Assembly (NCBI GenBank): GCA_003483065.1
Contig: DMWY01000001.1
Span: 8,606-72,605, forward strand
DNA: 64,000 nucleotides
Reading direction: 5' to 3'
Source: Candidatus Moraniibacteriota bacterium
GTDB lineage: Bacteria > Patescibacteriota > Minisyncoccia > Moranbacterales > UBA2206
Shown here: positions 318 to 38,247 of the stretch, in pieces
How the letters are laid out: every line of letters begins with the position of its first letter
How positions within the stretch are numbered: the first letter of the stretch is position 1
Notes under the pieces: model-generated
The model's input: the letters and a program-made list of their open reading frames with translations, nothing else
Told to the model about the DNA's origin: nothing
Database searches by the model: none
Position numbers and translations under genes: made by a program

Positions 318-346
318 TTGACTAAATTTATTTTAAATTGTATTAT
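318..346 (+). promoter_or_regulatory. sigma70-like promoter: -35 TTGACT (318-323), 17-nt spacer, -10 TATTAT (341-346). Strong SD AGGAGG at 366-371 precedes the ATG at 379.
   Basis: Read directly from the sequence; this is canonical hexamer spacing. Confidence 0.5.
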
Positions 347-378: not shown

Positions 379-1329
379 ATGAAAGAGGTCTTTAAAAATC
401 TAAATAAAGGAGAAAAGGATATGAAAAAAGTCTTCAAAAATCACCAAGAGAGAGTTGGGAATACCCCAATTGTTAGATGGGGTATGTACAGAGATGTGGA
501 AATTTTTTTAAAGCTGGAGGGAACAAACCCGACCGGAAGTTTAAAAGACCGCTCTGCTTTGGCCATCATTAAAAACAAATTGGAAAACGGCGAACTCAAA
601 AAGGGGATGAGATTGCTGGATGCTTCAAGCGGAAGTTTTGCTTGCTCAATGGCATATTTTGGCAACCGGTTCGGATTCAAGTCAGTGGTTGTAGTGAACA
701 AAAAATTGACGAGAATCAATGACATGTTTCTTCAGGGACAGGAAGCGGAGATAATCCATTACGGTGATGTTACGGGTGATGGCTACAGACGTTGTCTGGA
801 AATGATTCAGGAATCTCCTGGAAAATATTGTTTCCTAGACCAATTGAACAACTGGGCAAGTCCACAGGCTCATTATGATTCAACCGCGCCTGAAATTATT
901 GAAGCAATGCCAGATGTCGATTTTATAGCGGCCAGTATGGGGTCAGGTGCCACATTATGTGGCATATCAACTTTTATAAATGAAAAAAAACCCGAAGTGA
1001 AGATTATTGCTTCGAATGGAAAAATGGGTGGCAAAAAAATCGCCGGTACATTTGTAGAAGGACCGGATTATATTACGCCTTTCATTAAATCTTTGCAGGA
1101 GAAAAAACTGATCGATTTCATTGGCTATGTTTCTTATGAGCAGGCTATAAATCATGTTAGGCAAGATTTGATGACAAAAGGATTCAATGTTGGTCCTCAG
1201 ACTGGTGGTGTGTTTGAAGCAGTCATTCAGGCAATCGATACACTTAATCTTAGGGGAAATCTTGTCATTATTTCTGGAGATCACTCTTGGAAGAATATGG
1301 ACAAGCTTTTTCCGGAAATGTTTTCTTAA
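379..1329 (+). CDS. Cysteine synthase / cystathionine beta-synthase family (fold-type II PLP) enzyme. An alternative start at 421 is possible.
   Basis: GNTPIV and NPTGSLKDRSA (PLP-lysine motif) are present, with SSGSFACSMA and GSGATLCG glycine-rich loops. There are two in-frame ATGs (379 and 421), each with its own SD. Confidence 0.7.
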   Translation: MKEVFKNLNKGEKDMKKVFKNHQERVGNTPIVRWGMYRDVEIFLKLEGTNPTGSLKDRSALAIIKNKLENGELKKGMRLLDASSGSFACSMAYFGNRFGFKSVVVVNKKLTRINDMFLQGQEAEIIHYGDVTGDGYRRCLEMIQESPGKYCFLDQLNNWASPQAHYDSTAPEIIEAMPDVDFIAASMGSGATLCGISTFINEKKPEVKIIASNGKMGGKKIAGTFVEGPDYITPFIKSLQEKKLIDFIGYVSYEQAINHVRQDLMTKGFNVGPQTGGVFEAVIQAIDTLNLRGNLVIISGDHSWKNMDKLFPEMFS

Positions 1330-1471
1330 TCTTCAAACAGAGCTTCCTCTTAACGAATTGTCGTTAGGAGGAAGTTTTATTTTTCGAGTGGGATTTACTT
1401 CGTATGTTTTAAATGTTAAAATAAAAGTGGTAATAACTAAAAAATAATAAGCTTTAAATAATAAAATACAA

Positions 1472-3052
1472 ATGAACGAATATATAAAGAGTGGTGCATA
1501 TAAATGGAAAGTATGCATTTCTTTAAATTATGACTCAAAGCCAATAGAGTGCTTTGGCCAAGCGCGTCTGGAAAAAAGACCTGACGGGACACTTATTACA
1601 GTTCCTAGTTTTCAAAATGGCGACAAGCACATTCTAGTTTCAATTGACATGCAAAAGCAAATTAAGGTTCATACCTTTTCAGTAAATATTCAGCGTTGTT
1701 ATGCTCGGATTGATGGAGATGATCTTATTTTGAGTAATATTGCGATAGATTTATTTAAAAAAAATGAAAAAATCAAAATAAGAGGAGAAGTTTTGTTGAG
1801 ACAAATTTCCAATTTAATTGTTCCATTAGATGATTTATTTGTGGATATTAAATTGTTAGATGCTTCATCGATTTATAAAATACAAGATGGCAAGATTGTT
1901 TTTGACGAATCAAAAATTAAATTTATTAAAAGTACTCCTTCTTCGATTCAGGAGTATGCATTCAATAGTTTTGAAAATATATGCAAAGGAGGAAAACCAC
2001 TAGCCGTGCTTCTTAGTGCAGGCATTGATTCTCGCCTAAATATTGCCTTAGCTTATCATTTTTCAAAAAAATACAAAAACAAAATCATAGCCTATCATGA
2101 GTACAAAGATAAAAAAGAATATGAAATTGCGAAGCAGGTAGCGGATAGTTTGAAAATTCCCTTTATATGTGTTTCAAGGGATATGTTTCGAGAAGATCCT
2201 CTAGAATATGTTTTATCTCCTGAATTTATAGATTTTCATGGAGGTATTTATAGGGATACTCTTGCTCGATGGTATAGCTATATGGATTTAATGCGATTCA
2301 ATGATCCAGACTGTATAATAATAGGAATGGGAGCTGACGCCCACAAAGGAAGATATTATAGGGATATACATAAATTACCGGAGGATGCCAACAGAATTAT
2401 GGGATACAAAATCCAAAAAAAGGACATTCAGAATGAAAAAGACTTTGTGTCGTATTTTTCGAATGAATTAATCGATGAATTTTTTTCGGATATTACTAAG
2501 CGGTCCTTAATTTTTAATAGTATTCATTCTAGGACTGATTTTATTTTTTATCATGTTCGTACAGTTAAACAATCTGCATCGCGAACCCCCTTTTTTCATA
2601 TGAATTATGGAGTTCAATTTCCGCTTAAGGATGATAATTTTTTATCCCAAGCTTTTAGTTTACCTATGAAAGATAAGATGGACGGAGCCATTCCTTTGCG
2701 CTTTATTCAAAAACTGAATCCAGAAATTGACAGTATTCCTTATAATAGTGGAAATAGAAAATGCTATAGAAGACAATATATTAATTTAATCAGGCATCGA
2801 ATTAAATGCGTGTTATCAAAATTCCCCAATACTGATCGCCGAAATGAAAAAATAGCATGGGATCATCCGATGGTTATGGATCGACTTGACGGAGCTTCTA
2901 GCGAAATAACCGCAAAGCTTGAAAAATTTATTAAAGAAAATTTAGGAAAGAAAAAACCAAACGGACAAATCAAACCAGAATGTGCTTTGAGAGTATATTT
3001 ATTCTTAAGGCAGGCCGAAAAAAAACTGGGGGTTGAATTTATTTGTAAATAA
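1472..3052 (+). CDS. Asparagine-synthetase-like (AsnB C-terminal synthetase domain, PP-loop ATP pyrophosphatase) amidoligase lacking the N-terminal class-II glutaminase Cys
   Basis: LAVLLSAGIDSRL matches the AsnB LSGGLDSS PP-loop. The N-terminus MNEYIKSG has no Cys2 nucleophile. It follows the cysteine-synthase-like gene in the same orientation. Confidence 0.5.
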   Translation: MNEYIKSGAYKWKVCISLNYDSKPIECFGQARLEKRPDGTLITVPSFQNGDKHILVSIDMQKQIKVHTFSVNIQRCYARIDGDDLILSNIAIDLFKKNEKIKIRGEVLLRQISNLIVPLDDLFVDIKLLDASSIYKIQDGKIVFDESKIKFIKSTPSSIQEYAFNSFENICKGGKPLAVLLSAGIDSRLNIALAYHFSKKYKNKIIAYHEYKDKKEYEIAKQVADSLKIPFICVSRDMFREDPLEYVLSPEFIDFHGGIYRDTLARWYSYMDLMRFNDPDCIIIGMGADAHKGRYYRDIHKLPEDANRIMGYKIQKKDIQNEKDFVSYFSNELIDEFFSDITKRSLIFNSIHSRTDFIFYHVRTVKQSASRTPFFHMNYGVQFPLKDDNFLSQAFSLPMKDKMDGAIPLRFIQKLNPEIDSIPYNSGNRKCYRRQYINLIRHRIKCVLSKFPNTDRRNEKIAWDHPMVMDRLDGASSEITAKLEKFIKENLGKKKPNGQIKPECALRVYLFLRQAEKKLGVEFICK

Positions 3053-3061
3053 GATAATTTT

Positions 3062-4651
3062 ATGAAGCTATTGAATTTTCCAAAAAAAATTTATCACAAT
3101 ATTGTTGGATATAAATTAACAAATGATATTCAAAAATTTATCAATATAAACAAAAAATATTGGGGTGATTTTCATGGAGATTCAAAAAATGGATATGTTT
3201 TAATAACTGGTTTGAAAAATTCTGCCTCTAATTTTGTGTCGTCAGGAAGAGTCGCAAAATCAATCGAAGAGGAAACTGGTTGCTTACCAATCGTATTAGT
3301 GGATGCACTTAGCTTTTCTTCAAAATATTGGAAGAAAATATATGGATCATATAATATCGACAATTTTTTGTTTTACAGAAATTATCGGAGCAATATTTTT
3401 TTTATAGCTAAATCATTAGTTCTAACTGCAAAATTTTATTTCAAGCAAAAAAGCGTAAATGATTTGTTGAAATTGGAATTTGAAAATATCCGCATAGGAG
3501 ATTTGATATACGATACTATTTTGAGGTTTAATGTTGGATTGTATACAATAGATAAGGTTAAAATAACTTATTTTGGCGATATCTACTCAGCTTTTTTGCT
3601 GGTTATGATATATAAAAAAATATTTAAAAAATATAACATAAAATATATATGTCCAGATCTTTCTGTTTTCATAAGAGGAGGTATTCCACTGAGAATTGCA
3701 GATAAAAATGGTGCGACTGTGATATTGGCTAGTAGAAGAACAATGAAGAGTTATGAAGGATTGGATATTTTCGAAGGAAAACATCGGCCAAGAATGGCAG
3801 AGGTTAATGCTCTTAGGAAAAATACAAATTTGTATAATGATATCGATGGATATTTCGAAAATCGTTTTTCCGGTAATGTCAATGAAATGGATGTTCTAAA
3901 ATCCTATAAAGGAAAAATTGAGTACAATAAAGAATCCTTTTGTAAATACTTAAATTTGGATGAAAATAAACCGATAGTTTTCATAATGCCACACGCTTTT
4001 TCTGATGGACCTCATCATACTCCTATGCATAAGCTATTATTTAGAGATTTTTATGTTTGGCTGGTGGAAACTTTAAAATGCGTTTCTCGTATAAATGATG
4101 TTAACTGGGTTATTAAACCGCATCCAATGTCTTTCAAATATAGAGAAGAAGGAGAAGTGGAAAAATTAGTCAAATTATATGGCAAGAACAACATCCATAT
4201 TGTTCCTGAAGATTTTAACACAAAAAGCATAAAGAATATAGCGGATGTTTTGGTTACTGTACAAGGGAAATCTGGATTAGAATTCAGTTGCTTTGGCATT
4301 CCTGCTATTATTACATCACAAGCATCTTATAGCGGATTTGGATTCACGATTGAGCCAAAAACAGTTAACGAATATTTTGATTTGCTAAAAAATATACCTT
4401 CTATACAAAAATTAAATGAAGACCAAGTAAAAAGCGCAAAAGTTTTATCGGCGATAATGTTTCTTTATTCGCGTACTGACGACCCACTGTTTCCTAAGGG
4501 AGAAGATATTTTATATTTCAGATATAATGAGAAAGCAAGATGGAAACAGAATTGTTTACTTATGGAAAAATATAATAGATCCAAGGATGAATTTTACTTA
4601 AGAGTAAAGGATCTTATAAATTTAAATCTATATAAAAAATATCTAAACTGA
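3062..4651 (+). CDS. GT-B-like 'HP-motif' polymer glycosyl/phosphotransferase, KpsC/KpsS (Capsule_synth) or TagF-like
   Basis: VIKPHPMS ... TVQGKSGLEFSCFGIPAI resembles the Capsule_synth / glycerophosphotransferase C-terminal domain (catalytic His-Pro followed by a T.NS..G.EAl..G.P block). The family assignment is tentative. Confidence 0.35.
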   Translation: MKLLNFPKKIYHNIVGYKLTNDIQKFININKKYWGDFHGDSKNGYVLITGLKNSASNFVSSGRVAKSIEEETGCLPIVLVDALSFSSKYWKKIYGSYNIDNFLFYRNYRSNIFFIAKSLVLTAKFYFKQKSVNDLLKLEFENIRIGDLIYDTILRFNVGLYTIDKVKITYFGDIYSAFLLVMIYKKIFKKYNIKYICPDLSVFIRGGIPLRIADKNGATVILASRRTMKSYEGLDIFEGKHRPRMAEVNALRKNTNLYNDIDGYFENRFSGNVNEMDVLKSYKGKIEYNKESFCKYLNLDENKPIVFIMPHAFSDGPHHTPMHKLLFRDFYVWLVETLKCVSRINDVNWVIKPHPMSFKYREEGEVEKLVKLYGKNNIHIVPEDFNTKSIKNIADVLVTVQGKSGLEFSCFGIPAIITSQASYSGFGFTIEPKTVNEYFDLLKNIPSIQKLNEDQVKSAKVLSAIMFLYSRTDDPLFPKGEDILYFRYNEKARWKQNCLLMEKYNRSKDEFYLRVKDLINLNLYKKYLN

Positions 4652-5649
4652 TGAAAAAAACAAAAATCTTTTTTGCGTATAAGCATACGGATAATCCATG
4701 GGGCGGAGCGAATAATTTTATCCGGGCATTATATAATGAAATAAAAATCAATCCTGAATTTGATGTGCATCATAACATCAACTTAAAAAGTGACATTATT
4801 TTTTTTAGTCAATTATCTTGTGGGCCAGGGAATGTTTTATTTGGTAGTAAAAAACGCTATCGTTTTTCGGATATAAAAAAATTGAAAAATAAAAGTAAGG
4901 CCAAGCTAGTCGTTAGAGCAGTCAATCTCAATATAAATTCTCATCCTCCCAAGAGTCTGGGATCAATACTGGCGTATATAAGAACTGGTTTATGGTTGGA
5001 TATTGAAACAATAAAACTGGTTAATTTAGCTGATTTTGTTATTTTCCAAAGTGAATTTCAAAAAGAATTTTTCAAGAGATGGGGATACAAAGGAAAAAAT
5101 AATACAGTTATTCATAATGGAGCACCATTAATTTTTAAAAATAATAATTTTTTTGTTAAAGAAGTTAATAATCCATTGAAACTTGTGTCAAATTCAAATT
5201 ACAAGGAATTCAAAAAACATGACATAATTGCCAAGATATCTCTACTAAAAGAAGTAAGTGTAATTCATGTTGGGACTTGGTCTGATAAAATAAAAAATCA
5301 CAAAGTTGATATTAGAGGAACCTTAAGTCACGAAGAAATTGTGGAAATATATAAAAATTCAGACTATCTTTTGCATCCTGCCTTAAGTGATCCATGTCCA
5401 AATTCGGTTATCGAGGCTTTGTATTTTGGTTTGCCGGTTATTTATAATAACAGAAAAGGAAGTAGTCAAGAATTGGTCAAGGGTAACGGAATTTCACTTG
5501 ATGAAAATAACCTAGAAAAAACAATTCGAATTGCAAAGAATAATTTTACAGCATTAAAACAAAAACTTTCCAGTGCTCGTGACTATTATTCAATAAAGAG
5601 AGGAGTTTCTATGTATGCGGAAGTGTTTAATAAATTTAAAAATGAATAA
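4651..5649 (+). CDS. Glycosyltransferase, GT-B fold (GT4-like C-terminal motif)
   Basis: LHPALSDPCPNSVIEALYFGLPVIYN resembles the GT4 E..G..x.EA.a.G.PVI motif. The start overlaps the upstream stop (TGATG). Confidence 0.45.
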   Translation: MKKTKIFFAYKHTDNPWGGANNFIRALYNEIKINPEFDVHHNINLKSDIIFFSQLSCGPGNVLFGSKKRYRFSDIKKLKNKSKAKLVVRAVNLNINSHPPKSLGSILAYIRTGLWLDIETIKLVNLADFVIFQSEFQKEFFKRWGYKGKNNTVIHNGAPLIFKNNNFFVKEVNNPLKLVSNSNYKEFKKHDIIAKISLLKEVSVIHVGTWSDKIKNHKVDIRGTLSHEEIVEIYKNSDYLLHPALSDPCPNSVIEALYFGLPVIYNNRKGSSQELVKGNGISLDENNLEKTIRIAKNNFTALKQKLSSARDYYSIKRGVSMYAEVFNKFKNE

Positions 5650-5651
5650 TT

Positions 5652-6602
5652 ATGGAAGATGCAAAAAAAGAGAATATTTTTAGTAGTATTAACTGTCCAG
5701 TCTGCAAAAATAATAAGTTTAAAATTGTTATTGAATTAACACCAGATCAATTTCTAAACAAAGAAAGAAAAGAGTATTATAATTTAAAAGTGCTGGGAGT
5801 TGATGATAATACAAAATTTTTTATAAAAAAATGCAAAAAATGCGGATTTGTATTTGTTAATCCTAGGTTAAGAAGCGATCTTTATTCAGTAGTTTATAAC
5901 GAAGCTAAAGTTAGTCAAAATGAGGTTAAAAACTGGGAATTTAAAGAAGATGATCTGGGTAATTTATATAATTTATATAGTAAATATAGAGAAATATTTC
6001 CATTTCTAAGCGCCCTGCAGTTTTTCAGGGAATATTTTAAAAAAGCAAAAAATGATGGCTATAAACAGCTGAGATTATTGGATTATGGATGTGGACAAGG
6101 GCATATCTTGGATTTATGCAAAGTTTTTGGAATTGATGGAATTGGAGTGGATATTGATTCTTTTAGATTGAATTATTGTAAACAAAAAGATTTAAATGTC
6201 ATGCTTCCCTCAGAATTGCCAAGTTCGGAGAAATTTCATATTATCATTTCTGATGCTGTTATTGAGCATATTGATGATTTAGACGCATATTTCAAATATG
6301 CGAGCGAAAGACTTTCAAAAAATGGGATTTTTTATCTTACTGGATTAACCCCCAGCATTATAAGAATTGAAAAGAGGGATGGTTGTTATAAGCGGGTAAT
6401 GCCCTTAGAGCATATAAATTATTTTACTCGCAAAAACCTATTAAGATTAGCAGGTAGGTATGAATTTAAGGAAGCTAAAAGAAGCATAGGAGTTTTTGCC
6501 ACAAAAAACATTATGCAATACAGCTATCCCATCTTAAAGAAGTTTATATTCAGAGGGTTTTATCCAACTGGATATTTTGAAATAACACTAATAAAAAAAT
6601 AA
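5652..6602 (+). CDS. Class I SAM-dependent methyltransferase with N-terminal C4 zinc ribbon
   Basis: CPVCKNNKF...CKKCGFVFVNP forms the zinc ribbon, and LLDYGCGQGHILD is a SAM motif I. It is a paralog of 11192..12133. Confidence 0.6.
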   Translation: MEDAKKENIFSSINCPVCKNNKFKIVIELTPDQFLNKERKEYYNLKVLGVDDNTKFFIKKCKKCGFVFVNPRLRSDLYSVVYNEAKVSQNEVKNWEFKEDDLGNLYNLYSKYREIFPFLSALQFFREYFKKAKNDGYKQLRLLDYGCGQGHILDLCKVFGIDGIGVDIDSFRLNYCKQKDLNVMLPSELPSSEKFHIIISDAVIEHIDDLDAYFKYASERLSKNGIFYLTGLTPSIIRIEKRDGCYKRVMPLEHINYFTRKNLLRLAGRYEFKEAKRSIGVFATKNIMQYSYPILKKFIFRGFYPTGYFEITLIKK

Positions 6603-6606
6603 TAAA

Positions 6607-7983
6607 ATGAGAAGAAATGATCCATGGTTATATATACCAATTGAAACAAAGGCGCGTGATCTTTATGGGAAAACACTTCTAGCTTCTTTTGTCGCCATAA
6701 ATGGATTTAATGTTGTGCTTGGTTCCAAAAAAGATATTAACTCTAGGAGTCTATTTTTTCCAAAGGGAATTATTTTTAATGTCGGCTTGGCAAGGAATTT
6801 ATCCAATAATTCTAAAAGATTCAAAAAGGAAGGTCACAAGGTAGTGGTTATGGATGAGGAAGGTCTTGTTACATTGAGAGACGATATCTATCTTCATCAG
6901 CGAGTTTCCAAAGAAGGACTGGAAAATGCTGATTTATTTTTTTGTTGGGGAGAGAGGCAGGCTTGTATAGTTGAAGAAAAAGCCAGAAAAATGAACTGCA
7001 AAATATCTATCACAGGCAATCCTCGTTTTGATATGCTAAGAAAGGAATATAGAGTTATTTTTAATAAGGATGTTGAAGAAATTAAAAAAAAATACGGAAA
7101 ATTTATTTTGGTAAATACGAATTTCGGACGCGGAAATCATTTTGCTGGGGATAATTTTTTGCTAGATTCCTTGAAAGAAAAAGGATGGATGAATAATCCA
7201 GATGATAAAAAATATATTCTTGCTAATGTTGATTGGCAAAAGAAAATGTTTAAGGAATTTCAACAGATTATTTCAGAAATAGCTGAAAAATTTAAAGAGT
7301 ATAATATTATCATTCGGCCTCATCCTTCGGAGAAATATGAAATATGGGAAAAAATAGCTCAAACTTTTCCTAATGTTTTTGTCGTTCATTCTAGCAACGC
7401 CGTGCCTTGGATAATGGCGACCGATATACTGATACATAATGGCTGTACTACGGCAGTAGAAGCTTTTGTTCTAGGAACTGAAGCAGTAACATATCGTCCT
7501 TTTATCATTAAAGAACAAGAAACTGAATTTCCCAATAAAATTAGCTGGGAAGCGTTCAATTCAAAAGAGCTGATGGAGATAATTGAAAAAAAAATTAATA
7601 ACCCCATTATTAATGTTGAAGATCATAATATCAAGAAGAGATATTTAGACAATTTTATTTCTGGTGTAGAAGGAAAAATGGCTTCAGAACAGATTTCTTT
7701 TTATCTTAAGTCAATAGCGCAACCTAATCATAAAAAAATGAACATCCCTTTAATATTGTTATTTGATATCTATGAGCGAGTTATATTGATGCTAAAAAGG
7801 ATTGTATCTGGAAAAAATAGGGGCAGTGTTTCATTAGCTTATCAATTGCACAAAAATCCTGGCTTAGTGAAAAAGGATTTTCAGGATTTTATTGAAAAAA
7901 TATCCAGAATCGATAAAAAATTCGCTAATTTGAAAGTAAAAAGAATTGGATTGAGTTGCTATCAAATTTATGAAAATAAATAG
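6607..7983 (+). CDS. GT-B-like 'HP-motif' protein, KpsC/KpsS (Capsule_synth)-like
   Basis: IIIRPHPSEKYEIW ... HNGCTTAVEAFVLGTEAVTY is the same motif arrangement as in 3062..4651. The assignment is tentative. Confidence 0.35.
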   Translation: MRRNDPWLYIPIETKARDLYGKTLLASFVAINGFNVVLGSKKDINSRSLFFPKGIIFNVGLARNLSNNSKRFKKEGHKVVVMDEEGLVTLRDDIYLHQRVSKEGLENADLFFCWGERQACIVEEKARKMNCKISITGNPRFDMLRKEYRVIFNKDVEEIKKKYGKFILVNTNFGRGNHFAGDNFLLDSLKEKGWMNNPDDKKYILANVDWQKKMFKEFQQIISEIAEKFKEYNIIIRPHPSEKYEIWEKIAQTFPNVFVVHSSNAVPWIMATDILIHNGCTTAVEAFVLGTEAVTYRPFIIKEQETEFPNKISWEAFNSKELMEIIEKKINNPIINVEDHNIKKRYLDNFISGVEGKMASEQISFYLKSIAQPNHKKMNIPLILLFDIYERVILMLKRIVSGKNRGSVSLAYQLHKNPGLVKKDFQDFIEKISRIDKKFANLKVKRIGLSCYQIYENK

Positions 7984-9250
7984 TTTTATTTTGAGAATAA
8001 TAAGGTTGTTTGATGCTTTTTCCCCAAAAATTTTGGTAAGTTTCAGGATAAAAATTTTTCAGTTAGTGGGAAATCCTTTTTTTTCTCAAATTATTTCAAA
8101 TGATGAAATAATTAATTTTGGTGAAAAAAATAAGCATATTTTTTTTGGTTATTACGATGTGACTCCTTTTAATGATAGCGATAAATCATTATTAGTTATG
8201 CAGGCGTCACTTATGAATAGGGCTCCAAAAGAGAATGATTATGCTGAAATTGGTTATTATCATATTAACGAATTAAACCGAAGTTTTGTTTTTTTGGGAA
8301 AAACAAATACTTGGTGTTGGCAACAAGGATGTAGATTGCAATGGTATGGCGGAGGAAAAAATCAGATTATTTATAATTGCCTAGTTGATGGAGAATATGG
8401 ATCAATGATAAAAGAAATTTCTAGCGGAAATATAATAAAAAAAATAAATAAGTCGCTATATGCAATAAGCAAGGATGGAGAATGGGGGATTTCTTTGGAT
8501 TTTTCTCGTCTCCAGCGTCTCAGGCCGGGATATGGGTATGGAACCTTGCCAGACAAAAGCATTGGTGACCCATGTCCAGATTATAATGGCATAGAATTAG
8601 TTAATTTGAAAACAAATGAATCGCACCAGCTTTTTTCACTGAAAGAAATTTCCAAGATAGAACCGCACAATTCTATGAATGGAGCCCAGCATTATTTTAA
8701 CCATTTAATGTTTAATCCTTCTGGGAATAGATTTCTTTTTTTTCATTTATGGATGGATAAAAATAAAAAAAGATATTCAAGGCTGTTTGTAGCTGATAAG
8801 AATGGAGAAAATATAAAACTATTAAACAATAGTGGATCTATTTCCCATTATAATTGGATTTCAGAAGATGAAATAATTCTATACAGTTTAATAAAAGAAA
8901 AAAAAGAATATGCGTATGCTATTTTCGACAGTCGAAATGGTGGAATTAAATATTTTGGAAAAAATATTCCCAAAAGTGATGGGCATCCAACTTTATTGAA
9001 AAATAGTAAAATCATTATTACTGATACTTATCCTGATTTATTTTCGCAAAGAAAGCTACTCGCTTATAAAACAAAGGAAGATGAAACTAAGATTCTAGCG
9101 AGATTTGATAGTCCAAAAAATTTCGCAGGAGAATTTAGATGTGATTTGCATCCAAGAATCAGCAATAATGGGAAAATTATATGTGTCGACAGAATTATTG
9201 ATGGAAAAAGAAATATTTCCCTGATGCCATTTGATGCTAAATTATTGTAG
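7970..9250 (+). CDS. Hypothetical protein, possibly a beta-propeller (TolB / oligogalacturonate-lyase-like C-terminal region)
   Basis: The ORF overlaps the upstream gene by 14 nt. The C-terminal CDLHPRISNNGKIICVD resembles propeller-blade motifs. Confidence is very low. Confidence 0.25.
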   Translation: MKINSFILRIIRLFDAFSPKILVSFRIKIFQLVGNPFFSQIISNDEIINFGEKNKHIFFGYYDVTPFNDSDKSLLVMQASLMNRAPKENDYAEIGYYHINELNRSFVFLGKTNTWCWQQGCRLQWYGGGKNQIIYNCLVDGEYGSMIKEISSGNIIKKINKSLYAISKDGEWGISLDFSRLQRLRPGYGYGTLPDKSIGDPCPDYNGIELVNLKTNESHQLFSLKEISKIEPHNSMNGAQHYFNHLMFNPSGNRFLFFHLWMDKNKKRYSRLFVADKNGENIKLLNNSGSISHYNWISEDEIILYSLIKEKKEYAYAIFDSRNGGIKYFGKNIPKSDGHPTLLKNSKIIITDTYPDLFSQRKLLAYKTKEDETKILARFDSPKNFAGEFRCDLHPRISNNGKIICVDRIIDGKRNISLMPFDAKLL

Positions 9251-10416: not shown

Positions 10417-11187
10417 ATGAATAAAATTGAATTAAAATATTTTTTTAAGTTAAAAAATATAGGTAAAATAGTAAAAAAATTGATTATGCAACACTGGAAT
10501 CAGAAAAAGAAAATTCCAGAATATAAAAATATTATAGATGGTCTCACTGAGAATTCAATAACAGTATTTACAAGTATTATAGGAGACAAAGATATTCTTT
10601 TAGATAATCAAATCACCGAAGGCGCGAATTTTATAGCTTTTACTAATCAGAAAAGTGATGTATGGAAAACAATAAAACCGTATGATAAGTTTAAGGACGA
10701 CAGAAGAAATTCGCGGATCTATAAAATAATGCCTCATATGTTTTTTGATACGGAGTATTCTATCTGGATGGATGGGAATGTAAAATTAAAAGTTCCGGCA
10801 AAAGAAGTAGTCGATAAATTTCTCAAAGATAAAAACATTGCTTTATGGAAGCATAAAAATAGAGATTGTATTTATGCTGAGGCGGAAGCATGCTACGAGC
10901 AAAATAGAGAAACTCCAGAAGCTCTAGGAGAGCAAATAGAGGCGTATAGAAAACTAGATACCCCAGAACATAACGGACTTTATGCGGCTACAGTTATAAT
11001 TAGACGGCATACAAAAAAAATAAATGAATTAAATGAAAAATGGTGGGCGCATTATTCAAGATATTCAAAAAGAGACCAGATAAGTTTTCCGGTGGTGTTT
11101 CCTAAGGAAGAAATAAATTGCATAGAGGATGGAGAAATGTGGAAAAATAAATATTTTGAAAGAATAGAACATATTACAGAAGTATAA
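10417..11187 (+). CDS. Putative glycosyltransferase-like protein (DUF616 / TOD1-MUCI70-like?)
   Basis: YKIMPHMFFDTEYSIWMDGNVKL is reminiscent of the DUF616 core. The call is from memory and is low confidence. Confidence 0.3.
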   Translation: MNKIELKYFFKLKNIGKIVKKLIMQHWNQKKKIPEYKNIIDGLTENSITVFTSIIGDKDILLDNQITEGANFIAFTNQKSDVWKTIKPYDKFKDDRRNSRIYKIMPHMFFDTEYSIWMDGNVKLKVPAKEVVDKFLKDKNIALWKHKNRDCIYAEAEACYEQNRETPEALGEQIEAYRKLDTPEHNGLYAATVIIRRHTKKINELNEKWWAHYSRYSKRDQISFPVVFPKEEINCIEDGEMWKNKYFERIEHITEV

Positions 11188-12944: not shown

Positions 12945-14837
12945 TTATTTATCAAAATATTCCCTAAACCAAAGTTCTAAGGTAATAAGAGCCCAAATAC
13001 GATAAGCATGGCTGATTTGCGTATTTACATGTTCATCTAGAAGGGCTCGCACAGCTTCTTTTTTAAATAACTTTCTATTTATTGCTTTCTCAGATAAAAG
13101 AGTGTCATAAGCGAAATTCTTGAGTTCAGCGCGAAACCAGACATCAATAGGAATACCAAAGCCCATTTTTGGGCGAAACATTACCTCATCTGGCACAAGG
13201 CCACGCAAAGCTTCTTTGAGAATGTATTTTTTATTATTCAGACCTTTGATTTTTAGATTGAATGGAATCTGAGCGGTGAGTTCGAGCAGTTCATGGTCAA
13301 GAAAAGGGGATCGGCCTTCGAGGGCAACTGCCATCGAATCGATGTCAACTTTCACCATCAAATCATCTGGGAGATAGGTTGAAAAATCAGCGAAAAGGCA
13401 TTGATCCATTTTATTTTTCGTTTCAGCTTCGCCAAATTTTTCCGCGACGATATTATAAGAGTCAATATTTTTAGTTTTTTCTTTGAAACTGTCAGTATAA
13501 ATTTCATTTTTAAGTTCATTGGAGAAATAACGGATATAATTTACATATCTATAATCGTATTTTTGAGAAAGTGTATTTGAAAAAACATAAGCTCGATCAA
13601 AAAAAGTATTCTTAATATTTTTTGCTAAAAATTTGGCAATCGGCAAGATGATTTGTTTGTGAAAGGGAATCAATTTATTATAAAGTATTCCAAATTTTTG
13701 CACGCTATATCTCCCATACCCAGCAAAATTTTCATCCCCACCATCGCCGTTAAGTGCCACTGTCACGAAATCTCTGGTCATCTTGGAAACATAATATGTC
13801 GGCAGGGCGCTGGAATCAGCAAAAGGTTCTTCGTATTGTTTCACTAGCATCGGCAAAAGTTCAATAGCATTTGGTTTCACAACAAATTCCTTGTGATCAG
13901 TTTTGAATTTTTCTGCAACAATGCGGGCGTATTTCAATTCATTATATTTTTCTTCTTCAAAACCGATGGAAAAAGTTTTCACTGGCTTGTTTGAGAGCTT
14001 ACTCATGAGAGCCACAATGGCGCTAGAATCAATTCCTCCAGAAAGAAAAGTTCCGAGTGGAACATCGGAAATCATCCTCAGTCTGACTGATTCTTCTAAC
14101 TTTTTCATTATTCTTTTTTTCCATTCGTCTTCCGACATGTCTAATTTTTTAGAATAATCCAATTTCCAATATCTCTCTTTTTCTACCTTTTTTGTTTTTA
14201 GATTAATCAAAAGATAGTGTGCTGGTTCTAATTTTTTGAGATCTTTAAATCCAGTAAGAGGAGTAGGACAGTATTGCAAAGTAAGATAATGATGAATGGC
14301 AACATAATCCGGTTCCTTTCGATATTCTTTTTGTGTGAGAATGGCTTTGAGCTCGGAAGCGAAAATAAAAACATTTTCATTAAGATAATATTTGAAAGGT
14401 TTTTTCCCCACGCGATCACGCGCACAAAAAATCGTTTTTTCTTTTTCGTCATAGATTGCGAAAGAAAACATTCCGCGCAAATGTTCCAAGCATTTTTTTC
14501 CGAATTTATCATAAAGTGCCAAAAGCACCTCCGTGTCTGCTTTGGATTTGAAAGTGTAGCCTTCTTTGATTAACATCTCCCGTTTTTCTTGAAAATTATA
14601 TATCTCTCCATTGAAAACTATCCAATAGCGATTTAGGTAATTCATTGGTTGGTGGCCAAGAGGGGAGAGATCGATAATGGAAAGTCGTCGATGCCCAAGT
14701 CCAATTTTTTTATCTTGTGAGATATATACTCCGCCATCATCCGGACCGCGGTGCAGAATTTTTTCGTTCATAGCCAAAATATCCTGCTCCGAAACAGAAT
14801 CATTTTCAAAATAAATTTTACCAGTTATTCCACACAT
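12945..14837 (-). CDS. asnB: Asparagine synthase (glutamine-hydrolysing) family amidotransferase; in this context possibly a WbpS-like uronic-acid amidotransferase
   Basis: MCGITG supplies the N-terminal Cys nucleophile. LSGGIDSSAIVALM is the PP-loop. The protein is 630 aa. Confidence 0.85.
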   Translation of the reverse strand: MCGITGKIYFENDSVSEQDILAMNEKILHRGPDDGGVYISQDKKIGLGHRRLSIIDLSPLGHQPMNYLNRYWIVFNGEIYNFQEKREMLIKEGYTFKSKADTEVLLALYDKFGKKCLEHLRGMFSFAIYDEKEKTIFCARDRVGKKPFKYYLNENVFIFASELKAILTQKEYRKEPDYVAIHHYLTLQYCPTPLTGFKDLKKLEPAHYLLINLKTKKVEKERYWKLDYSKKLDMSEDEWKKRIMKKLEESVRLRMISDVPLGTFLSGGIDSSAIVALMSKLSNKPVKTFSIGFEEEKYNELKYARIVAEKFKTDHKEFVVKPNAIELLPMLVKQYEEPFADSSALPTYYVSKMTRDFVTVALNGDGGDENFAGYGRYSVQKFGILYNKLIPFHKQIILPIAKFLAKNIKNTFFDRAYVFSNTLSQKYDYRYVNYIRYFSNELKNEIYTDSFKEKTKNIDSYNIVAEKFGEAETKNKMDQCLFADFSTYLPDDLMVKVDIDSMAVALEGRSPFLDHELLELTAQIPFNLKIKGLNNKKYILKEALRGLVPDEVMFRPKMGFGIPIDVWFRAELKNFAYDTLLSEKAINRKLFKKEAVRALLDEHVNTQISHAYRIWALITLELWFREYFDK

Positions 14838-16194
14838 GAGCGTTTAGAAATTTTTGTAAACCAAAAAGTAAGTCGGTATTAATACCATAAGAATAGAGAA
14901 GATTAATGAGGATAAAAAAGAATAACCCTAAATATAAAAATATTTTTATAATTATATGATGAAGTTTGTTCTTAATTAGCTCATCATTTAGTTTAAAGGA
15001 GAGCCATACACCATAGGCATATATGAGAAATGTAATTGGCCAAATAAAAACAAGAGATCTATCAGCATGTTCATTAATAGAGGATAATAATGTAAAAGTT
15101 AAAGCAGAAAAATAAAGAGAGAGAATTTTATATTGCTTATAATGAAATAAAATAAAGATTACATATATAAATATTATCACAAATGCAAAGTTAAAAAAAA
15201 TCCAATTAAAATATCTATCCTCAATAATCGCAAATCCAGGGAATAAGTCACTATATTTATAATGGTTTGTTTGTTTGCTTATTGCTGTTGTTGATGGCGA
15301 AGATGATGGTGATGGCGATGGCGAGAATGATGAAGAAGAAGATGAAGAAGATGAAGCTGAGGATGATAAAGATGATGAAGAAGATAAGACGGGACTTGTT
15401 TTTGGTGATTCAATAGTGGAATTAATAATATTAGAATTTATGATAAATGATTTGATGCCATAAGGATTATCCCCATCTAAATAATAAGATGTTGGAAGAT
15501 AAAAAATAAATAAAATGAAAATTGAAAGGGCTATTTTTTTTAGCATAAGCAAATCGATTTTTTTTATAAAAAAAGAATAAAAAATATAAAAAAGAGCTAG
15601 AGTTATCATTAAATATAAAAAGATTGTATGAGTATATAGTCCTAGCGGAATCAATACTAACAATATTATTTTCCAATGTTTATAATTGCCCAATATAATT
15701 GCAAATATAACAAATATTAATAAAACAGCAAAAAATCCAGGTACTATCCACCAAAATCCATGGTACCGGCCACCATTATATAGGGCGAGAAAAAAAAGCA
15801 AGAAAGCAATTAGCTTTTTGTCTGTTTCTATATTTTTTAAAAAAATAATCAACGAAGGCAATAGAATCAAAATTCCAATATAGAAGCTTAAATGAAAAAC
15901 ATCCACAGCCTTTATGTTTAGTAATTGACCAATAGAACCGAAAAATAATCGATAAGACAAATGTTCAAATCCAAAATAATCATTAAAAGAAGATAGAAAC
16001 TCTTCACAAGAAAAAAGAGAAGGACATTTAATAATTGAATTTATATGATATATGTATGTTTGAGCTTCCTCTCCTCTTGACCACTCGTGATCAAATAGAA
16101 CAGAAATTAAGAAAAATTTCCATCCAATAAAAAATAAGGAGGATAATAAAATCCACTTATTGCTTTTGATGAAAATTATAATTCTCTCAATCAT
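14818..16194 (-). CDS. Polytopic membrane protein with an internal Ser/Pro/Thr-rich low-complexity loop
   Basis: The sequence is highly hydrophobic and contains SSSSSLSSSASSSSSSSSSFSPSPSPSSSPSTT. It overlaps the asnB start by 20 nt. Confidence 0.45.
   Translation of the reverse strand: MIERIIIFIKSNKWILLSSLFFIGWKFFLISVLFDHEWSRGEEAQTYIYHINSIIKCPSLFSCEEFLSSFNDYFGFEHLSYRLFFGSIGQLLNIKAVDVFHLSFYIGILILLPSLIIFLKNIETDKKLIAFLLFFLALYNGGRYHGFWWIVPGFFAVLLIFVIFAIILGNYKHWKIILLVLIPLGLYTHTIFLYLMITLALFYIFYSFFIKKIDLLMLKKIALSIFILFIFYLPTSYYLDGDNPYGIKSFIINSNIINSTIESPKTSPVLSSSSSLSSSASSSSSSSSSFSPSPSPSSSPSTTAISKQTNHYKYSDLFPGFAIIEDRYFNWIFFNFAFVIIFIYVIFILFHYKQYKILSLYFSALTFTLLSSINEHADRSLVFIWPITFLIYAYGVWLSFKLNDELIKNKLHHIIIKIFLYLGLFFFILINLLYSYGINTDLLFGLQKFLNAHVWNNW
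15290..15440 (-). repeat. Trinucleotide-biased low-complexity DNA encoding the poly-Ser/Pro linker (coordinates approximate)
   Basis: (GAW)n-like runs on the + strand; the + strand mirror ORF 15275..15463 is poly-Asp/Glu. Confidence 0.6.
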
Positions 16195-19891: not shown

Positions 19892-19979
19892 AGCATGAAG
19901 CATATAACATGAAACATAAAATTAATTAAAAAATAATTCGTAATTCGTACATTTGTATGGATTCGTAATTCGTAAGGGA

Positions 19980-21314
19980 ATGAAAATTGCAATTATTGGA
20001 ACGGGTTATGTGGGATCAGTGACGGGGGCTTGTTTTGCTGAAATGGGCAACACTGTCATTTGCGTGGATAATAATCCACAAAAAGTTGAACAATTCAGAA
20101 GTGGAAAAGTTCCACTGCACGAAAAAGGATTGGATGAGTTGGTGGCGCGAAACTTGAAAAATGAAACTTTGAATTTTACCACTAATTTGAAAGAGGCACT
20201 GGACGCTAGTGACATAGTTTTTATCGCGGTTGGTACTCCGCCCAATGAAGATGGCAGTGCTGACTTGAGTCACGTAATTGGTGTGGCAAAATCAATCGGA
20301 CAAATGATAGAACATGAACTGATTATTGTGGACAAATCAACTGTGCCAGTGGGAACGGCAGAATTAGTCAAAAAAACCATCAAAGAGGAACAAGAAATGC
20401 GGGGAGTGAATATTCCCTTTCATGTTGTGAGTAATCCTGAGTTTTTGGCGCAAGGAACGGCAGTAAAGGACTTTCTTGAGCCTAGTCGCATTGTGGTGGG
20501 GGCAGATGATGAGAAGACCCTAAAAGCAATGGAAGAGCTGTATGCGCCTTTTATGCGCCGGGAGGGTCGTTTTTATGCTATGGATCCAAAAACTGCTGAA
20601 ACAGTGAAGTATGCGGCTAACAGCTTTTTGGCAGCTAAGATATCAATCAACAATGAATTAGCTAATATTTGTGCCAGAGTGGGTGCGGATTTTGATTTAG
20701 TGAGGAAGGCAATGGGGGCCGATCCGAGAATTGGTGAGCCTTTTATGTATGCTGGTCCGGGGTTTGGTGGGAGTTGTTTTCCAAAGGATGTCAAAGCTCT
20801 CATTAAGATTGCCAAAGATTATGGCTATACAGCAGAAATGTTTTTGCAGACATTGGAAACTAATGAGAAACAAAAACATGTTCTGGCGGATATGGTGATA
20901 GAAAAATTTCCCGATAATTTAGAAGGCAAAATTTTCTCTGTTTGGGGTTTGGCTTTCAAGGCGGGGACAGATGATATGCGAGAATCTTCGGCGCTTACAA
21001 TCATCAACAAACTTATCGACAATGGCGCAAAAATTCAAGCCTATGATCCGGAAGCGATGAAGATGGCGAAAACTTCGGAGTATTTCGGCGACAATTCTGC
21101 AATTACTTATTTTGAAAATAAATATGAAGCGCTCAGTGGAACGGATGGACTTTTGATCATTACAGAATGGAAAGAATTTCGTACCCCGGATTTTTCTCAA
21201 ATGAAAAAAAATCTAAAACAGCCGTTGATTTTTGATGGCCGACTTATGTATGACGTCAAAAAGATGCAAGAGCTTGGTTTTGAATATCGTTCAATTGGAA
21301 GAAGAGTTGAATAA
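19980..21314 (+). CDS. ugd: UDP-glucose 6-dehydrogenase
   Basis: MKIAIIGTGYVGSVTGACFAEMGN is the Rossmann N-terminus. GGSCFPKDV contains the catalytic Cys. The ORF-track start at 19953 is a TTG extension. Confidence 0.9.
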   Translation: MKIAIIGTGYVGSVTGACFAEMGNTVICVDNNPQKVEQFRSGKVPLHEKGLDELVARNLKNETLNFTTNLKEALDASDIVFIAVGTPPNEDGSADLSHVIGVAKSIGQMIEHELIIVDKSTVPVGTAELVKKTIKEEQEMRGVNIPFHVVSNPEFLAQGTAVKDFLEPSRIVVGADDEKTLKAMEELYAPFMRREGRFYAMDPKTAETVKYAANSFLAAKISINNELANICARVGADFDLVRKAMGADPRIGEPFMYAGPGFGGSCFPKDVKALIKIAKDYGYTAEMFLQTLETNEKQKHVLADMVIEKFPDNLEGKIFSVWGLAFKAGTDDMRESSALTIINKLIDNGAKIQAYDPEAMKMAKTSEYFGDNSAITYFENKYEALSGTDGLLIITEWKEFRTPDFSQMKKNLKQPLIFDGRLMYDVKKMQELGFEYRSIGRRVE

Positions 21315-21316
21315 AA

Positions 21317-21736
21317 TTATTTTCTGAAAACTAATTTTTTTCGCATAAAGAAATTCCAAAAAAGAACAAAAATAACAGCGATAATTTTGGCTAGCATTAC
21401 GGGGAGGCCGAGTTTGTCAGACAGCGACCAAAGGATGAATTCTGTCCAAAGAAGTCCAATAGCACCAACAGAGGCAAAGATAATAAATTCTTTTTTGATT
21501 CTGCCACTACTTTCAAAAACAAAAAGAACATTAATGGTGAAATTAGTTAGTATCCCACAACAATAGCTCACTGCGGCTGCGACAAGGTGGTTGATATGCA
21601 AGAATTGGTACAGAGCGAAAAGAACTGAAAGATCAACAAGTGTGGCTGTTCCGCCCGCCACTAAATACCGGAGAAATTGATGAAAAGTCTTCTCCGGCTT
21701 TTTTTTGAGGAAATTTTTTATATCTTCAATTTGCAT
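21317..21736 (-). CDS. GtrA-family small membrane protein (polyprenyl-P-sugar flippase family)
   Basis: FLRYLVAGGTATLVDLSVLF is present, with 4 TM helices and ~140 aa. The ATG at 21734-21736 is preferred over the TTG at 21748. Confidence 0.65.
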   Translation of the reverse strand: MQIEDIKNFLKKKPEKTFHQFLRYLVAGGTATLVDLSVLFALYQFLHINHLVAAAVSYCCGILTNFTINVLFVFESSGRIKKEFIIFASVGAIGLLWTEFILWSLSDKLGLPVMLAKIIAVIFVLFWNFFMRKKLVFRK

Positions 21737-23639: not shown

Positions 23640-23651
23640 TTTTTTGAATAT

Positions 23652-25526: not shown

Positions 25527-25561
25527 AGTAACAGTATAGTTTCAAAAAGCCAGTTTGTAAA

Positions 25562-27676: not shown

Positions 27677-27835
27677 TAGATTATAGAAATGTTATTGGAT
27701 TGATAAATTTTGTAACTATTAATATAATAGTAGGTATAGCTTACTCAGTCAATTTTCACCCTTTTTGCGCTTGCCGATATCGAAAGTTAATCCTATAATA
27801 AAAATGCAGTTTTAAATTTGAATTAAACTTAATTT

Positions 27836-31397: not shown

Positions 31398-31412
31398 AAT
31401 AATAGTTAAATT

Positions 31413-33038: not shown

Positions 33039-33042
33039 TTTG

Positions 33043-36139: not shown

Positions 36140-36705
36140 AAAAAGGATTTTATTTTTTTATAAATTTCTTCTTGATTTTGATTGCCATCAATCAGTTTCA
36201 TGTTCCACGTGAGATATTTTTCGTCATATAATTCTTTTTTCTTTTGGAGATAATCAATTCCTTGATCAGGTTTTCTTTCTCGAGACATAATAATTTTTGG
36301 ATTAGCTTGAAGATAGATGGCTATGTCAGGAGATTTGATGAATTTTTCACAAGGAATGTTTTTTTGTGAATTACTTAGAAAATAAATATTAATTACACTG
36401 TCATAAAAATACCGATCAGAGAGAATATAATCATATTTTTCTTTTTCTAATTTTCTATATAATTTTTTGAAACGCCAAATATCAATCATCAGAAATATTC
36501 TTCGCAGGATAATTTGAAGGAAAGTGGCTTTCGTTACGCTCTTACTAGAGCCAATTTTTTTTCTTGCAAATTTATTAGCCAAAGAAAAAGCTATTGCATG
36601 AAAATAAAAAACCCGCTTATTTTGCGATTTCAAATATTCTTTTAGCAATTCTGCTTGAGTTGATTTTCCTGAGCCATCGAGGCCGGAAATTGTGATTAAT
36701 TTCAT
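36136..36705 (-). CDS. dTMP-kinase-like P-loop nucleotide kinase
   Basis: ISGLDGSGKSTQ is the P-loop, and LSDRYFYDSV is a DRY motif at the Tmk-typical position. The ORF overlaps the Wzx start by 4 nt. Confidence 0.45.
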   Translation of the reverse strand: MKLITISGLDGSGKSTQAELLKEYLKSQNKRVFYFHAIAFSLANKFARKKIGSSKSVTKATFLQIILRRIFLMIDIWRFKKLYRKLEKEKYDYILSDRYFYDSVINIYFLSNSQKNIPCEKFIKSPDIAIYLQANPKIIMSRERKPDQGIDYLQKKKELYDEKYLTWNMKLIDGNQNQEEIYKKIKSFL

Positions 36706-36734
36706 TTTATTTTTTACTAATTACGAATTGTATG

Positions 36735-38243: not shown

Positions 38244-38247
38244 AAAT

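Follow-up and report, generated by a model that had tools for sequence, protein, structure and literature searches.

The window analysed here is a stretch of 64,000 nucleotides from a Candidatus Moraniibacteriota bacterium (assembly GCA_003483065.1, contig DMWY01000001.1), and it begins with a series of co-oriented genes that includes an unusual member of the asparagine synthetase B (AsnB) superfamily. The series opens with a gene for a CysM-like, fold-type II pyridoxal phosphate (PLP) enzyme (positions 379-1329, forward strand like all the following; PALP E 1.3e-42), which appears to form its own transcription unit. It is followed by the gene for the AsnB-like protein, a Cys-less two-domain protein of 526 aa (1472-3052; Asn_synthase E 1e-5 over residues 172-295), by a GT-B glycosyltransferase with an HP motif, here called HP1 (3062-4651; Capsule_synth 19.7 bits, GT-B fold in an AlphaFold2 (AF2) model), by a GT4-family glycosyltransferase whose start overlaps the HP1 stop (4651-5649; Glycos_transf_1 E 1.2e-10), by an S-adenosylmethionine (SAM) methyltransferase with an N-terminal CxxC...CxxC zinc-ribbon-like motif (5652-6602; Methyltransf_23 E 1.2e-17) and by HP2, a second protein with an HP motif, belonging to the surface-carbohydrate family TIGR04396 (6607-7983; E 1e-117). 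These six open reading frames (ORFs) had been delimited at exactly these coordinates in a sequence-only reading of the same DNA, and Pfam and NCBIfam scans agreed with the broad family assigned there to each. A seventh co-oriented ORF (7970-9250), encoding a 426-aa protein with no family match, belongs to the same tightly packed block and is its last gene; it overlaps the HP2 gene by 14 nt, indicating translational coupling. On the reverse strand, divergent from the PLP gene, positions 1-201 hold the first 67 codons of a 383-aa PLP enzyme of the cystathionine gamma-synthase (CGS) family. The 8.5 kb upstream of the window were read from contig LBSI01000001 (GCA_000991855.1; locus L001) of a Candidatus Moranbacteria genome (Candidate Phyla Radiation/Parcubacteria), which was identical to the window over the 13 kb compared, and the remainder of the CGS-family gene lies there at L001 7579-8730 (reverse strand). 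Labels of this type (such as L001, L005 or P0010) denote numbered contigs or loci carrying homologues.

The AsnB-like protein, annotated as hypothetical in GenBank (LBSI01000001), was analysed by profile, structure and family searches. It scored 24.5 bits against the AsnB model TIGR01536, far below the cutoff of 267.1, and an NCBIfam scan at E<=0.01 returned asn_synth_AEB and LarE only, with no model of the PseA/PtmG/WbpG type; a PDB sequence search returned no match. An AF2 model (mean predicted local distance difference test, pLDDT, 77.6; predicted TM score, pTM, 0.79) was then submitted to Foldseek, giving full-length matches to TsnB9 (E 7.6e-13), E. coli AsnB (5.6e-11), carbapenam synthetase (4.5e-10), beta-lactam synthetase (2e-9) and human ASNS, with 7ylz, 1ct9, 1q15 and 1mb9 among the entries matched. 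Single-domain PP-loop enzymes (NAD synthetase, LarE) reached only about 1e-4 in the same search, thus indicating that the protein is a two-domain member of the AsnB superfamily. A PP-loop enzyme of the tRNA-modification type was rejected on the same grounds, as AsnB-class structures ranked 7-9 orders of magnitude above NAD synthetase and LarE, and the grouping with AsnB proposed from the sequence therefore held in the fold search. The earlier description of a Cys-less protein consisting of the synthetase domain only was correct as to the fold and the missing cysteine, but not as to the domain content: the N-terminal part, about 160 aa long, is a beta-rich domain that aligned with the N-terminal nucleophile (Ntn) domain of AsnB, beta-lactam synthetase and carbapenam synthetase. 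The nucleophile Cys2 is absent: the protein begins with MNEYIK, and among 43 full-length sequences of the family there is no MC start.

A profile search of 1.84 billion representative proteins collected 54 representatives of this family at E<1e-30, and all the members that could be traced came from the Candidate Phyla Radiation (CPR) or from metagenomic sources. An alignment of 44 sequences, down to 18% identity, showed a conserved core made up of S182-x-G184-x-D186-S187-R188, H291-K292-G293, Y296, D356, R371 and K402; the PP-loop SAGIDS occupies residues 182-187, and its G184, D186 and S187 are invariant (100%). The AsnB-like protein is thus a small uncharacterised branch of the AsnB superfamily that keeps the PP-loop and has a degenerate Ntn-like N-terminal domain without the glutaminase nucleophile. 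It shares with TsnB9 and with the Cys-less members of the superfamily, beta-lactam and carbapenam synthetase, an Ntn-like N-terminal domain and an adenylating PP-loop C-terminal domain with the SxGxDS motif, implying a common chemistry in which an acyl-adenylate is formed and then converted into an amide. It differs from the superfamily in its low identity (about 10-14%), in the lack of Cys2 and in its genomic context, which is that of nonulosonic acids (NulO) rather than of amino acids or antibiotics.

The Cys-less two-domain architecture and the fold matches to carbapenam and beta-lactam synthetase might also suggest a natural-product enzyme unrelated to sugars, of the beta-lactam/carbapenam synthetase or lasso-peptide cyclase type. 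We consider this very improbable, as AsnB and TsnB9 scored equally well or better in the fold search, genes for a precursor peptide, a protease or a beta-lactam pathway were not found nearby, and the neighbours were invariably NeuB, NeuC, cytidylyltransferase and glycosyltransferase genes.

This association was evaluated in about 25 loci carrying AsnB-like genes, several of them from the same lakes or aquifers, for which we estimate about ten independent lineages. Homologues of both NeuB and NeuC occurred in all 14 loci for which 4 kb or more of sequence was available upstream, and a 2-hydroxyacid dehydrogenase gene in 13 of these 14. Directly 5' of the ligase gene there is typically a cytidylyltransferase gene of the CTP_transf_3 family, which in many cases overlaps the start of the ligase gene, and a methyltransferase and a PglK-like ABC exporter are usually encoded downstream of the ligase. 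The position between cytidylyltransferase and ligase behaves as a variable slot. It is empty in L007, L006, L105, L106, L113 and L114. In the P0010 locus and in L103 it holds a gene for a bona fide alanine racemase (367 bits in L103, where the cutoff is 218), and in L005 one for a 980-aa group II PLP decarboxylase fusion, so that amino-acid PLP enzymes precede the AsnB-like gene in several relatives. In L008 (5873-7072), L110 (137-1336) and L112 (8634-9848) the slot is occupied by an orphan protein of 399-404 aa, whose gene overlaps the AsnB-like gene and whose family gave no Pfam, NCBIfam or PDB sequence match. In the clade of the window it contains three inserted genes, one of which is the CysM-like gene.

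The upstream 8.5 kb contain, in the same orientation as the window block, genes for a PglK-like ABC exporter, a PGDH-like D-2-hydroxyacid dehydrogenase, a SAM methyltransferase, NeuB, NeuC and a cytidylyltransferase. NeuC, a hydrolysing UDP-GlcNAc 2-epimerase, scored 343 bits with NeuC_NnaA, above the cutoff of 236. The NeuB-like synthase has 276 aa and no SAF domain, and its 204.6 bits with NeuB_NnaB fall under the cutoff; the PseF/NeuA-like cytidylyltransferase scored 185 bits with PseF, just under the cutoff of 205.7, and at most 59 bits with the KdsB models. A NeuB-type synthase, a hydrolysing 2-epimerase and a CMP-synthetase therefore stand together upstream, the combination that marks a nonulosonic-acid locus. 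The series is broken by three genes, namely a gene for a 280-aa protein (reverse strand), the CGS-family gene (reverse strand) and the PLP gene. In L007, whose ligase is 50% identical to that of the window, the gene order is the same, the three inserted genes are missing and 22 nt separate the cytidylyltransferase gene from the ligase gene downstream of it. Hence the window block can be read as the distal half of a NulO operon split by an insertion, and the operon said in the sequence-only reading to lead the locus has its first half upstream of the window. With moderate confidence, we interpret positions 1472-9250 as the distal half of a nonulosonic-acid glycan operon in which the ligase and the transferases would have the roles proposed below.

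Two of the inserted genes can be described further. The 280-aa protein (L001 6680-7522, reverse strand), encoded between the CMP-synthetase and CGS-like genes, shows weak similarity to VanY/Peptidase_M15 (E 3e-4). The CGS-family protein found its best NCBIfam match in PRK08574 (287 bits against a cutoff of 477) and also matched the archaeal Ala/Glu racemase model NF041088 (208 bits). Taken together, the VanY/M15-like protein and the racemase match may hint at a supply of D-amino acids.

The neighbourhood data bear directly on the target of the ligase. The sequence-only reading had proposed an LCP-anchored polymer containing uronic acids, whose glucuronates would be amidated by the Cys-less AsnB-like enzyme with an amine made by the PLP enzyme, by analogy with the Campylobacter glucuronamides. 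The genes on which this idea drew are indeed present in the same 64-kb locus, i.e., ugd (19953-21314), a full glutamine-dependent AsnB (12945-14837) and an LCP gene (48328-49545), and AsnB-type synthesis of uronamides has been proposed elsewhere, for example for T. forsythia ManNAcCONH2. However, Ugd or LCP homologues were found in 0 of the approximately 25 related loci, and the constant companions of the ligase are NeuB and NeuC, present in every locus with enough flank, and the cytidylyltransferase gene to which it is coupled. In the window itself ugd is 17 kb distant and separated from the ligase gene by genes of the opposite strand, and the full-length AsnB and Ugd encoded elsewhere in the window would be a more natural source of uronamides, as proposed for Tannerella. 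Amidation of uronic-acid carboxylates by the AsnB-like protein is thus improbable in our view, and the nonulosonate is the better candidate for its target. On the evidence of its sequence and surroundings, the AsnB-like protein is probably an ATP-dependent, glutamine-independent amide ligase involved in nonulosonic-acid decoration.

A different role in the same pathway would be that of an ammonia-dependent amidotransferase converting the N-acetyl group of a nonulosonate into an acetamidino group, without ligation of any amino compound, as in Campylobacter PseA/PtmG (Cj1316c/Cj1324). These enzymes are also ATP-dependent PP-loop proteins without a glutaminase domain of their own and act on NulO at the CMP-sugar stage; acetamidino nonulosonates are common, a full AsnB has been proposed for the acetamidino role in T. 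forsythia, and in many related loci no gene next to the ligase is dedicated to making an amine. On the other hand, PseA and PtmG belong to a different family and turn acetamido groups into amidines, whereas carboxylates, and not amides, are what the AsnB fold activates, and the NCBIfam scan of the AsnB-like protein returned no WbuX/PseA-type match. An amidine-forming enzyme would also leave the 2-hydroxyacid dehydrogenase and the occasional alanine racemase or decarboxylase unexplained. We therefore regard this role as unlikely, although less so than the amidation of uronic acids, and retain the amide ligase as the preferred assignment.

The two proteins with an HP motif were examined as candidate transferases of the sugar. 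HP1 narrowly missed the gathering cutoff of Capsule_synth (PF05159; 19.7 against 20 bits), and HP2 gave no PF05159 match; many HP1 homologues do carry PF05159, and the HP1 family is widespread. The AF2 model of HP1 (pLDDT 90.7) has a GT-B fold, and KpsC was the nearest solved glycosyltransferase (8fux, 6mgc and 6mgb; E 2.6e-7 to 7e-6, TM 0.45-0.48), with TagF and a polysialyltransferase ranking further down. The motif K352-P-H354-P355 is invariant in 33 homologues. In L005, L006 and L007 the HP1 gene is the next one 3' of the ligase. PDB sequence searches with the HP1 profile and with HP2 returned no match. HP2 matched TIGR04396 over its full length with 393.9 bits, well above the cutoff of 125; its motif, R-P-H239-P240, aligns with HP1 around the HP motif.

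Both proteins matched the model of the BFO_1060 glycosyltransferase family, HP1 weakly (BFO_1060_trans, E 6e-5, 22.3 bits) and HP2 more clearly (NF046086, E 3.9e-39, 134.8 bits, short of the cutoff of 200). The members of this family from Tannerella forsythia are genetically required for the transfer of pseudaminic (Pse) or legionaminic (Leg) acid derivatives and carry the sialyltransferase D/E-D/E-G and HP motifs (PMC5420450). HP2 matches the model of the family of these Tannerella proteins (Tanf_01245 and TFUB4_00887) nearly from end to end, shares the HP motif and likewise belongs to a nonulosonic-acid locus, but differs in being a member of TIGR04396. A full-text literature search for TIGR04396 found nothing.

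Further information came from a homologue of HP1 in E. coli (33% identity; L016 10001-11590), encoded in the O108 O-antigen cluster directly after a complete legionaminic-type gene set and beside the O108 wzx gene, and annotated as hypothetical or as "KpsS family". The O108 antigen contains 8-epilegionaminic acid, and its cluster is reportedly one glycosyltransferase short of the expected number (PMC7685785). This suggests the E. coli homologue as a candidate for the missing nonulosonate transferase. The beta-Kdo (3-deoxy-D-manno-octulosonic acid) transferases KpsC and KpsS (GT107) share the GT-B fold and the HP motif with HP1, so that the earlier label of a KpsC-like enzyme was a fair description of the HP1 fold. 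As a statement of function it probably does not extend to Kdo: the local cytidylyltransferase is PseF/NeuA-like rather than KdsB-like, homologues of HP1 follow Leg or 8-epilegionaminic acid genes, and transfer of a nonulosonate is favoured both by the context and by the family to which HP2 belongs. HP1 is accordingly a predicted CMP-nonulosonate transferase, and CMP-nonulosonate, rather than CMP-Kdo, is the best-supported candidate donor for both HP1 and HP2.

The remaining genes of the block are conserved to different extents. The GT4 protein (4651-5649) shares 69-70% identity with homologues in L005 and L006, and the methyltransferase (5652-6602) has homologues in L005 (68%) and L102 (49%). 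The 426-aa protein (7970-9250) returned no match in Pfam, NCBIfam or PDB sequence searches and is conserved only in the close clade of L098 and L100, with 73% identity.

The PLP gene appears to be a newcomer to the locus. It had been taken as the first gene of a single operon with the ligase, a view contradicted by several DNA signals. A promoter-like site, TTGACT-17-TATTAT, precedes the gene at 318-346 (forward strand; 10 of 12 consensus positions, a pattern match only), and a terminator-like hairpin of 18 bp with 6 GC pairs, followed by a T-run, lies directly 3' of it at 1339-1378 (forward strand; 1339-1385 for the element as annotated). A second promoter-like site on the forward strand, TTTACT-17-TAAAAT with an upstream TG (1394-1422, again a pattern match only), could restart transcription of the glycan operon past the inserted genes. 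The GC content of the PLP gene is 0.395 and that of its third codon positions (GC3) 0.382, against 0.28-0.36 and 0.20-0.30 respectively across 18 neighbours, and within the region this gene alone has an AGGAGG leader. ATG 379 and ATG 421 each stand behind an AGGAG-type site, and the start region is duplicated (360-465), the two copies sharing 27 of 42 nt; the homologous proteins start at about residues 15-17, which makes ATG 421 the probable true start. Rfam and tRNA scans of the whole window were empty, with no riboswitch or T-box 5' of the PLP gene. The gene at 379-1329 is probably a self-contained cassette acquired horizontally.

The PLP enzyme scored 153.8 bits with the cysKM model TIGR01136 (cutoff 344), 135.9 with TIGR01139 (351), 125.7 with the CysM model TIGR01138 (394) and 146.3 with the SbnA model TIGR03945 (349.95); its closest solved relatives are CysM (profile E 1e-57) and O-phosphoserine sulfhydrylase. 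With these enzymes and SbnA it shares the fold, the phosphate-binding loop and the Schiff-base lysine, K56 in GSLKDR, which is invariant in 120 sequences of its subfamily. It departs from them in the asparagine loop, where TSGNT is replaced by SSGSF in the window protein and by SSG(S/N)(F/M/Y) across the subfamily, in an invariant glutamine (Q274) that aligns with S273 of E. coli CysK, in a distinct C-terminal motif, SGDxGWKN, and in its occurrence in glycan loci, often with a GHMP kinase gene. The alternative mentioned in the sequence-only reading, that the first gene is an ordinary CysK, was consequently rejected: the scores are less than half of every curated cutoff, the CysK substrate-loop residues are not all present, and the context is different.

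The subfamily consists of proteins of about 300 aa with 41-57% identity, from several phyla. A scan of the contigs with its profile was swamped by generic CysM-like genes, which share NPTGSxKDR, and only the L018 and L019 hits were true members. Six independent contexts were read, and five of them were glycan loci. In L010-12 and L014/15 the PLP relative is flanked by genes for a Wzx flippase on one side and a Cys-less AsnB-like protein on the other. We asked whether these AsnB-like partners belong to the subfamily of the window ligase, and rejected this for L010 and L014, BLASTP giving nothing and hhalign a probability of 2%. The partner in L014 (7409-9694, reverse strand) is a 761-aa protein with a C-terminal extension of about 190 aa that holds the sequence LDGSHRYAY; a ParB/Srx-like domain noticed there by eye was discarded, as no Pfam domain was found in the extension. 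A recurring glycan-locus cassette encodes a DegT aminotransferase, an ATP-grasp ligase, a methyltransferase, a CysM-like PALP protein, a GHMP kinase and a sulfotransferase. It occurs in unrelated bacteria at L013 2810-8587, L118 1184-9694 (L118/119) and L120 3793-9675 (L120/121), and may represent a pathway to an amide-linked, possibly phospho- or sulfo-amino-acid decoration. In L018 the relative stands beside a stand-alone condensation domain of the nonribosomal peptide synthetase type and a GT4 gene. No SbnB-like gene was seen next to the PLP gene of the window. The GHMP kinase, a frequent companion, may point to an O-phospho-amino acid as substrate, and the product of the PLP enzyme is most likely a beta-substituted alanine.

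The pairing of the subfamily with three kinds of amide-forming enzymes supports the general idea, put forward in the sequence-only reading, of a PLP enzyme supplying an amine to a ligase. The same logic reportedly operates in the glucuronamide pathway of Campylobacter jejuni HS:2, where PLP enzymes make a small amine and an ATP-grasp amidoligase joins it to the sugar carboxylate. The PLP subfamily described here also occurs with ATP-grasp ligases; nevertheless, the ligase fold in the window (AsnB-like instead of ATP-grasp), the PLP enzymes and the acceptor (a nonulosonate context instead of glucuronate) all differ from the HS:2 system. For the window itself, a PLP-made amine ligated by the Cys-less AsnB-like protein is plausible, but the pairing is not obligate, L007 and other loci having the ligase and no PLP gene.

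Another possibility is that the PLP gene and the divergent CGS-family gene form a sulfur-amino-acid unit, one CysM/CBS-like and the other cystathionine gamma-lyase-like, inserted by chance and unrelated to the glycan. The PLP gene has its own Shine-Dalgarno leader, its own terminator and a foreign GC content, it is paired divergently with a Cys_Met_Meta_PP gene, its closest solved relatives are sulfur enzymes of the CysM and O-phosphoserine sulfhydrylase type, and the ligase can do without it. Conversely, the enzyme stays below 50% of the curated cutoffs for CysK, CysM and CBS and has an altered substrate loop, its relatives were in glycan or amide-ligase contexts in 6/6 cases, with a Cys_Met_Meta_PP neighbour in 0/6, and the slot that it occupies holds other amino-acid enzymes in related loci. 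We consider such a glycan-unrelated transsulfuration or housekeeping role rather unlikely, but a serious alternative.

Starting from the split NulO operon, a working scheme can be drawn for the whole system. The upstream genes would form the proximal half of the operon, making and activating a sialic-acid-like nine-carbon sugar. The AsnB-like ligase would adenylate a carboxylate and then capture an externally supplied amine, leaving an amide on the nonulosonate. Since its gene is usually translationally coupled to the cytidylyltransferase gene, it probably acts on the sugar in its free or CMP-activated form. The carboxylate might belong to C1 of the sugar or to a hydroxy-acid of the glycerate or 2-hydroxyglutarate type, provided by the conserved 2-hydroxyacid dehydrogenase; the amine could come from common metabolism or from the enzyme in the variable slot, be it an alanine racemase, a decarboxylase or a CysM-like enzyme. 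HP1 and HP2 would transfer the sugar, modified or not, from the CMP-ulosonate onto the growing glycan, which the GT4 protein would extend and the methyltransferase would methylate. Nonulosonates with aminoacyl or hydroxyacyl groups are known, such as Leg5Ac7Ala in E. coli O161 and Pse5Am7Gra, as is a 2-hydroxyglutaryl bridge to a nonulosonate in Flexibacter. In its most specific form, the scheme makes the 526-aa protein the founder of a family of glutamine-independent AsnB-type ligases that would produce amino- or hydroxy-acid amides of sialic-acid-like sugars, with a swappable slot setting the donor; this we put forward only as a tentative proposal.

Several points weigh against the scheme. 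The substrate and product of the ligase were assigned from genomic context, and its AF2 model was built on just 10 sequences. NeuC, NeuB and NeuA by themselves would yield a sugar of the Neu5Ac type without a free amine, which limits models based on N-acylation, and a precedent for amidation of a nonulosonate at C1 was not found in the literature. A large share of the related loci stems from a small number of metagenomes and is only partly independent, and the Pfam and BFO_1060 scores of HP1, together with the BFO_1060 score of HP2, are all under the curated cutoffs. The pairing of PLP enzyme and ligase, on which the sequence-only reading had laid most stress, is the weakest link: it may be coincidental, given the terminator of the PLP gene, its foreign composition and its absence from most related loci, and the gene faces a CGS-family gene in what is a classic transsulfuration pairing.

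Finally, the rest of the glycan locus contains some genes of separate interest. On both strands, positions 21726-34647 encode seven consecutive large GT-C membrane proteins (PMT_2, PMT, YfhO), an unusual run of paralogous lipid-linked-sugar transferases. An RtcB RNA ligase of 548 aa, extended by about 100 aa at its N-terminus (36136-38381, reverse strand), is embedded in the locus, as is a thymidylate-kinase-like protein of 189 aa; the RtcB ORF overlaps the upstream GT4 ORF (38248-39366, reverse strand) by 134 nt. A 256-aa protein (10417-11187, forward strand) contains a glycosyltransferase-like domain of the TOD1/MUCI70 type (E 1.4e-23), a family known mainly from plants. A 458-aa protein (14818-16194, reverse strand) gave no Pfam or NCBIfam match.

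Nonulosonic acids, i.e., sialic, legionaminic and pseudaminic acids, shape how hosts, phages and neighbouring cells perceive bacterial surfaces. The enzymes that decorate them with N-acyl, amidino or amino-acid groups are mostly unknown, as was stated outright in the Tannerella work (PMC5378307). The AsnB, GT-B/KpsC-like, TIGR04396 and CysM-like superfamilies to which the proteins of the window belong are known, and the ligase family and the PLP subfamily within them are uncharacterised; the functions predicted here from the contexts of ligase and PLP genes are not described in the literature searched, and a full-text search combining Patescibacteria with nonulosonic acids found nothing. The locus places sialic-acid-like glycans in the CPR/Patescibacteria. 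A rare family of AsnB type, tied strictly to the presence of NeuB, NeuC and CMP-synthetase genes, is a directly testable candidate for a NulO-modifying enzyme, and a second candidate enzyme class is formed by the CysM-like proteins encoded repeatedly with amide ligases in glycan loci. If the proposed function is correct, CPR bacteria would possess a modular way to diversify their surface nonulosonate, and one long-missing class of nonulosonate-modifying enzymes would have been identified.

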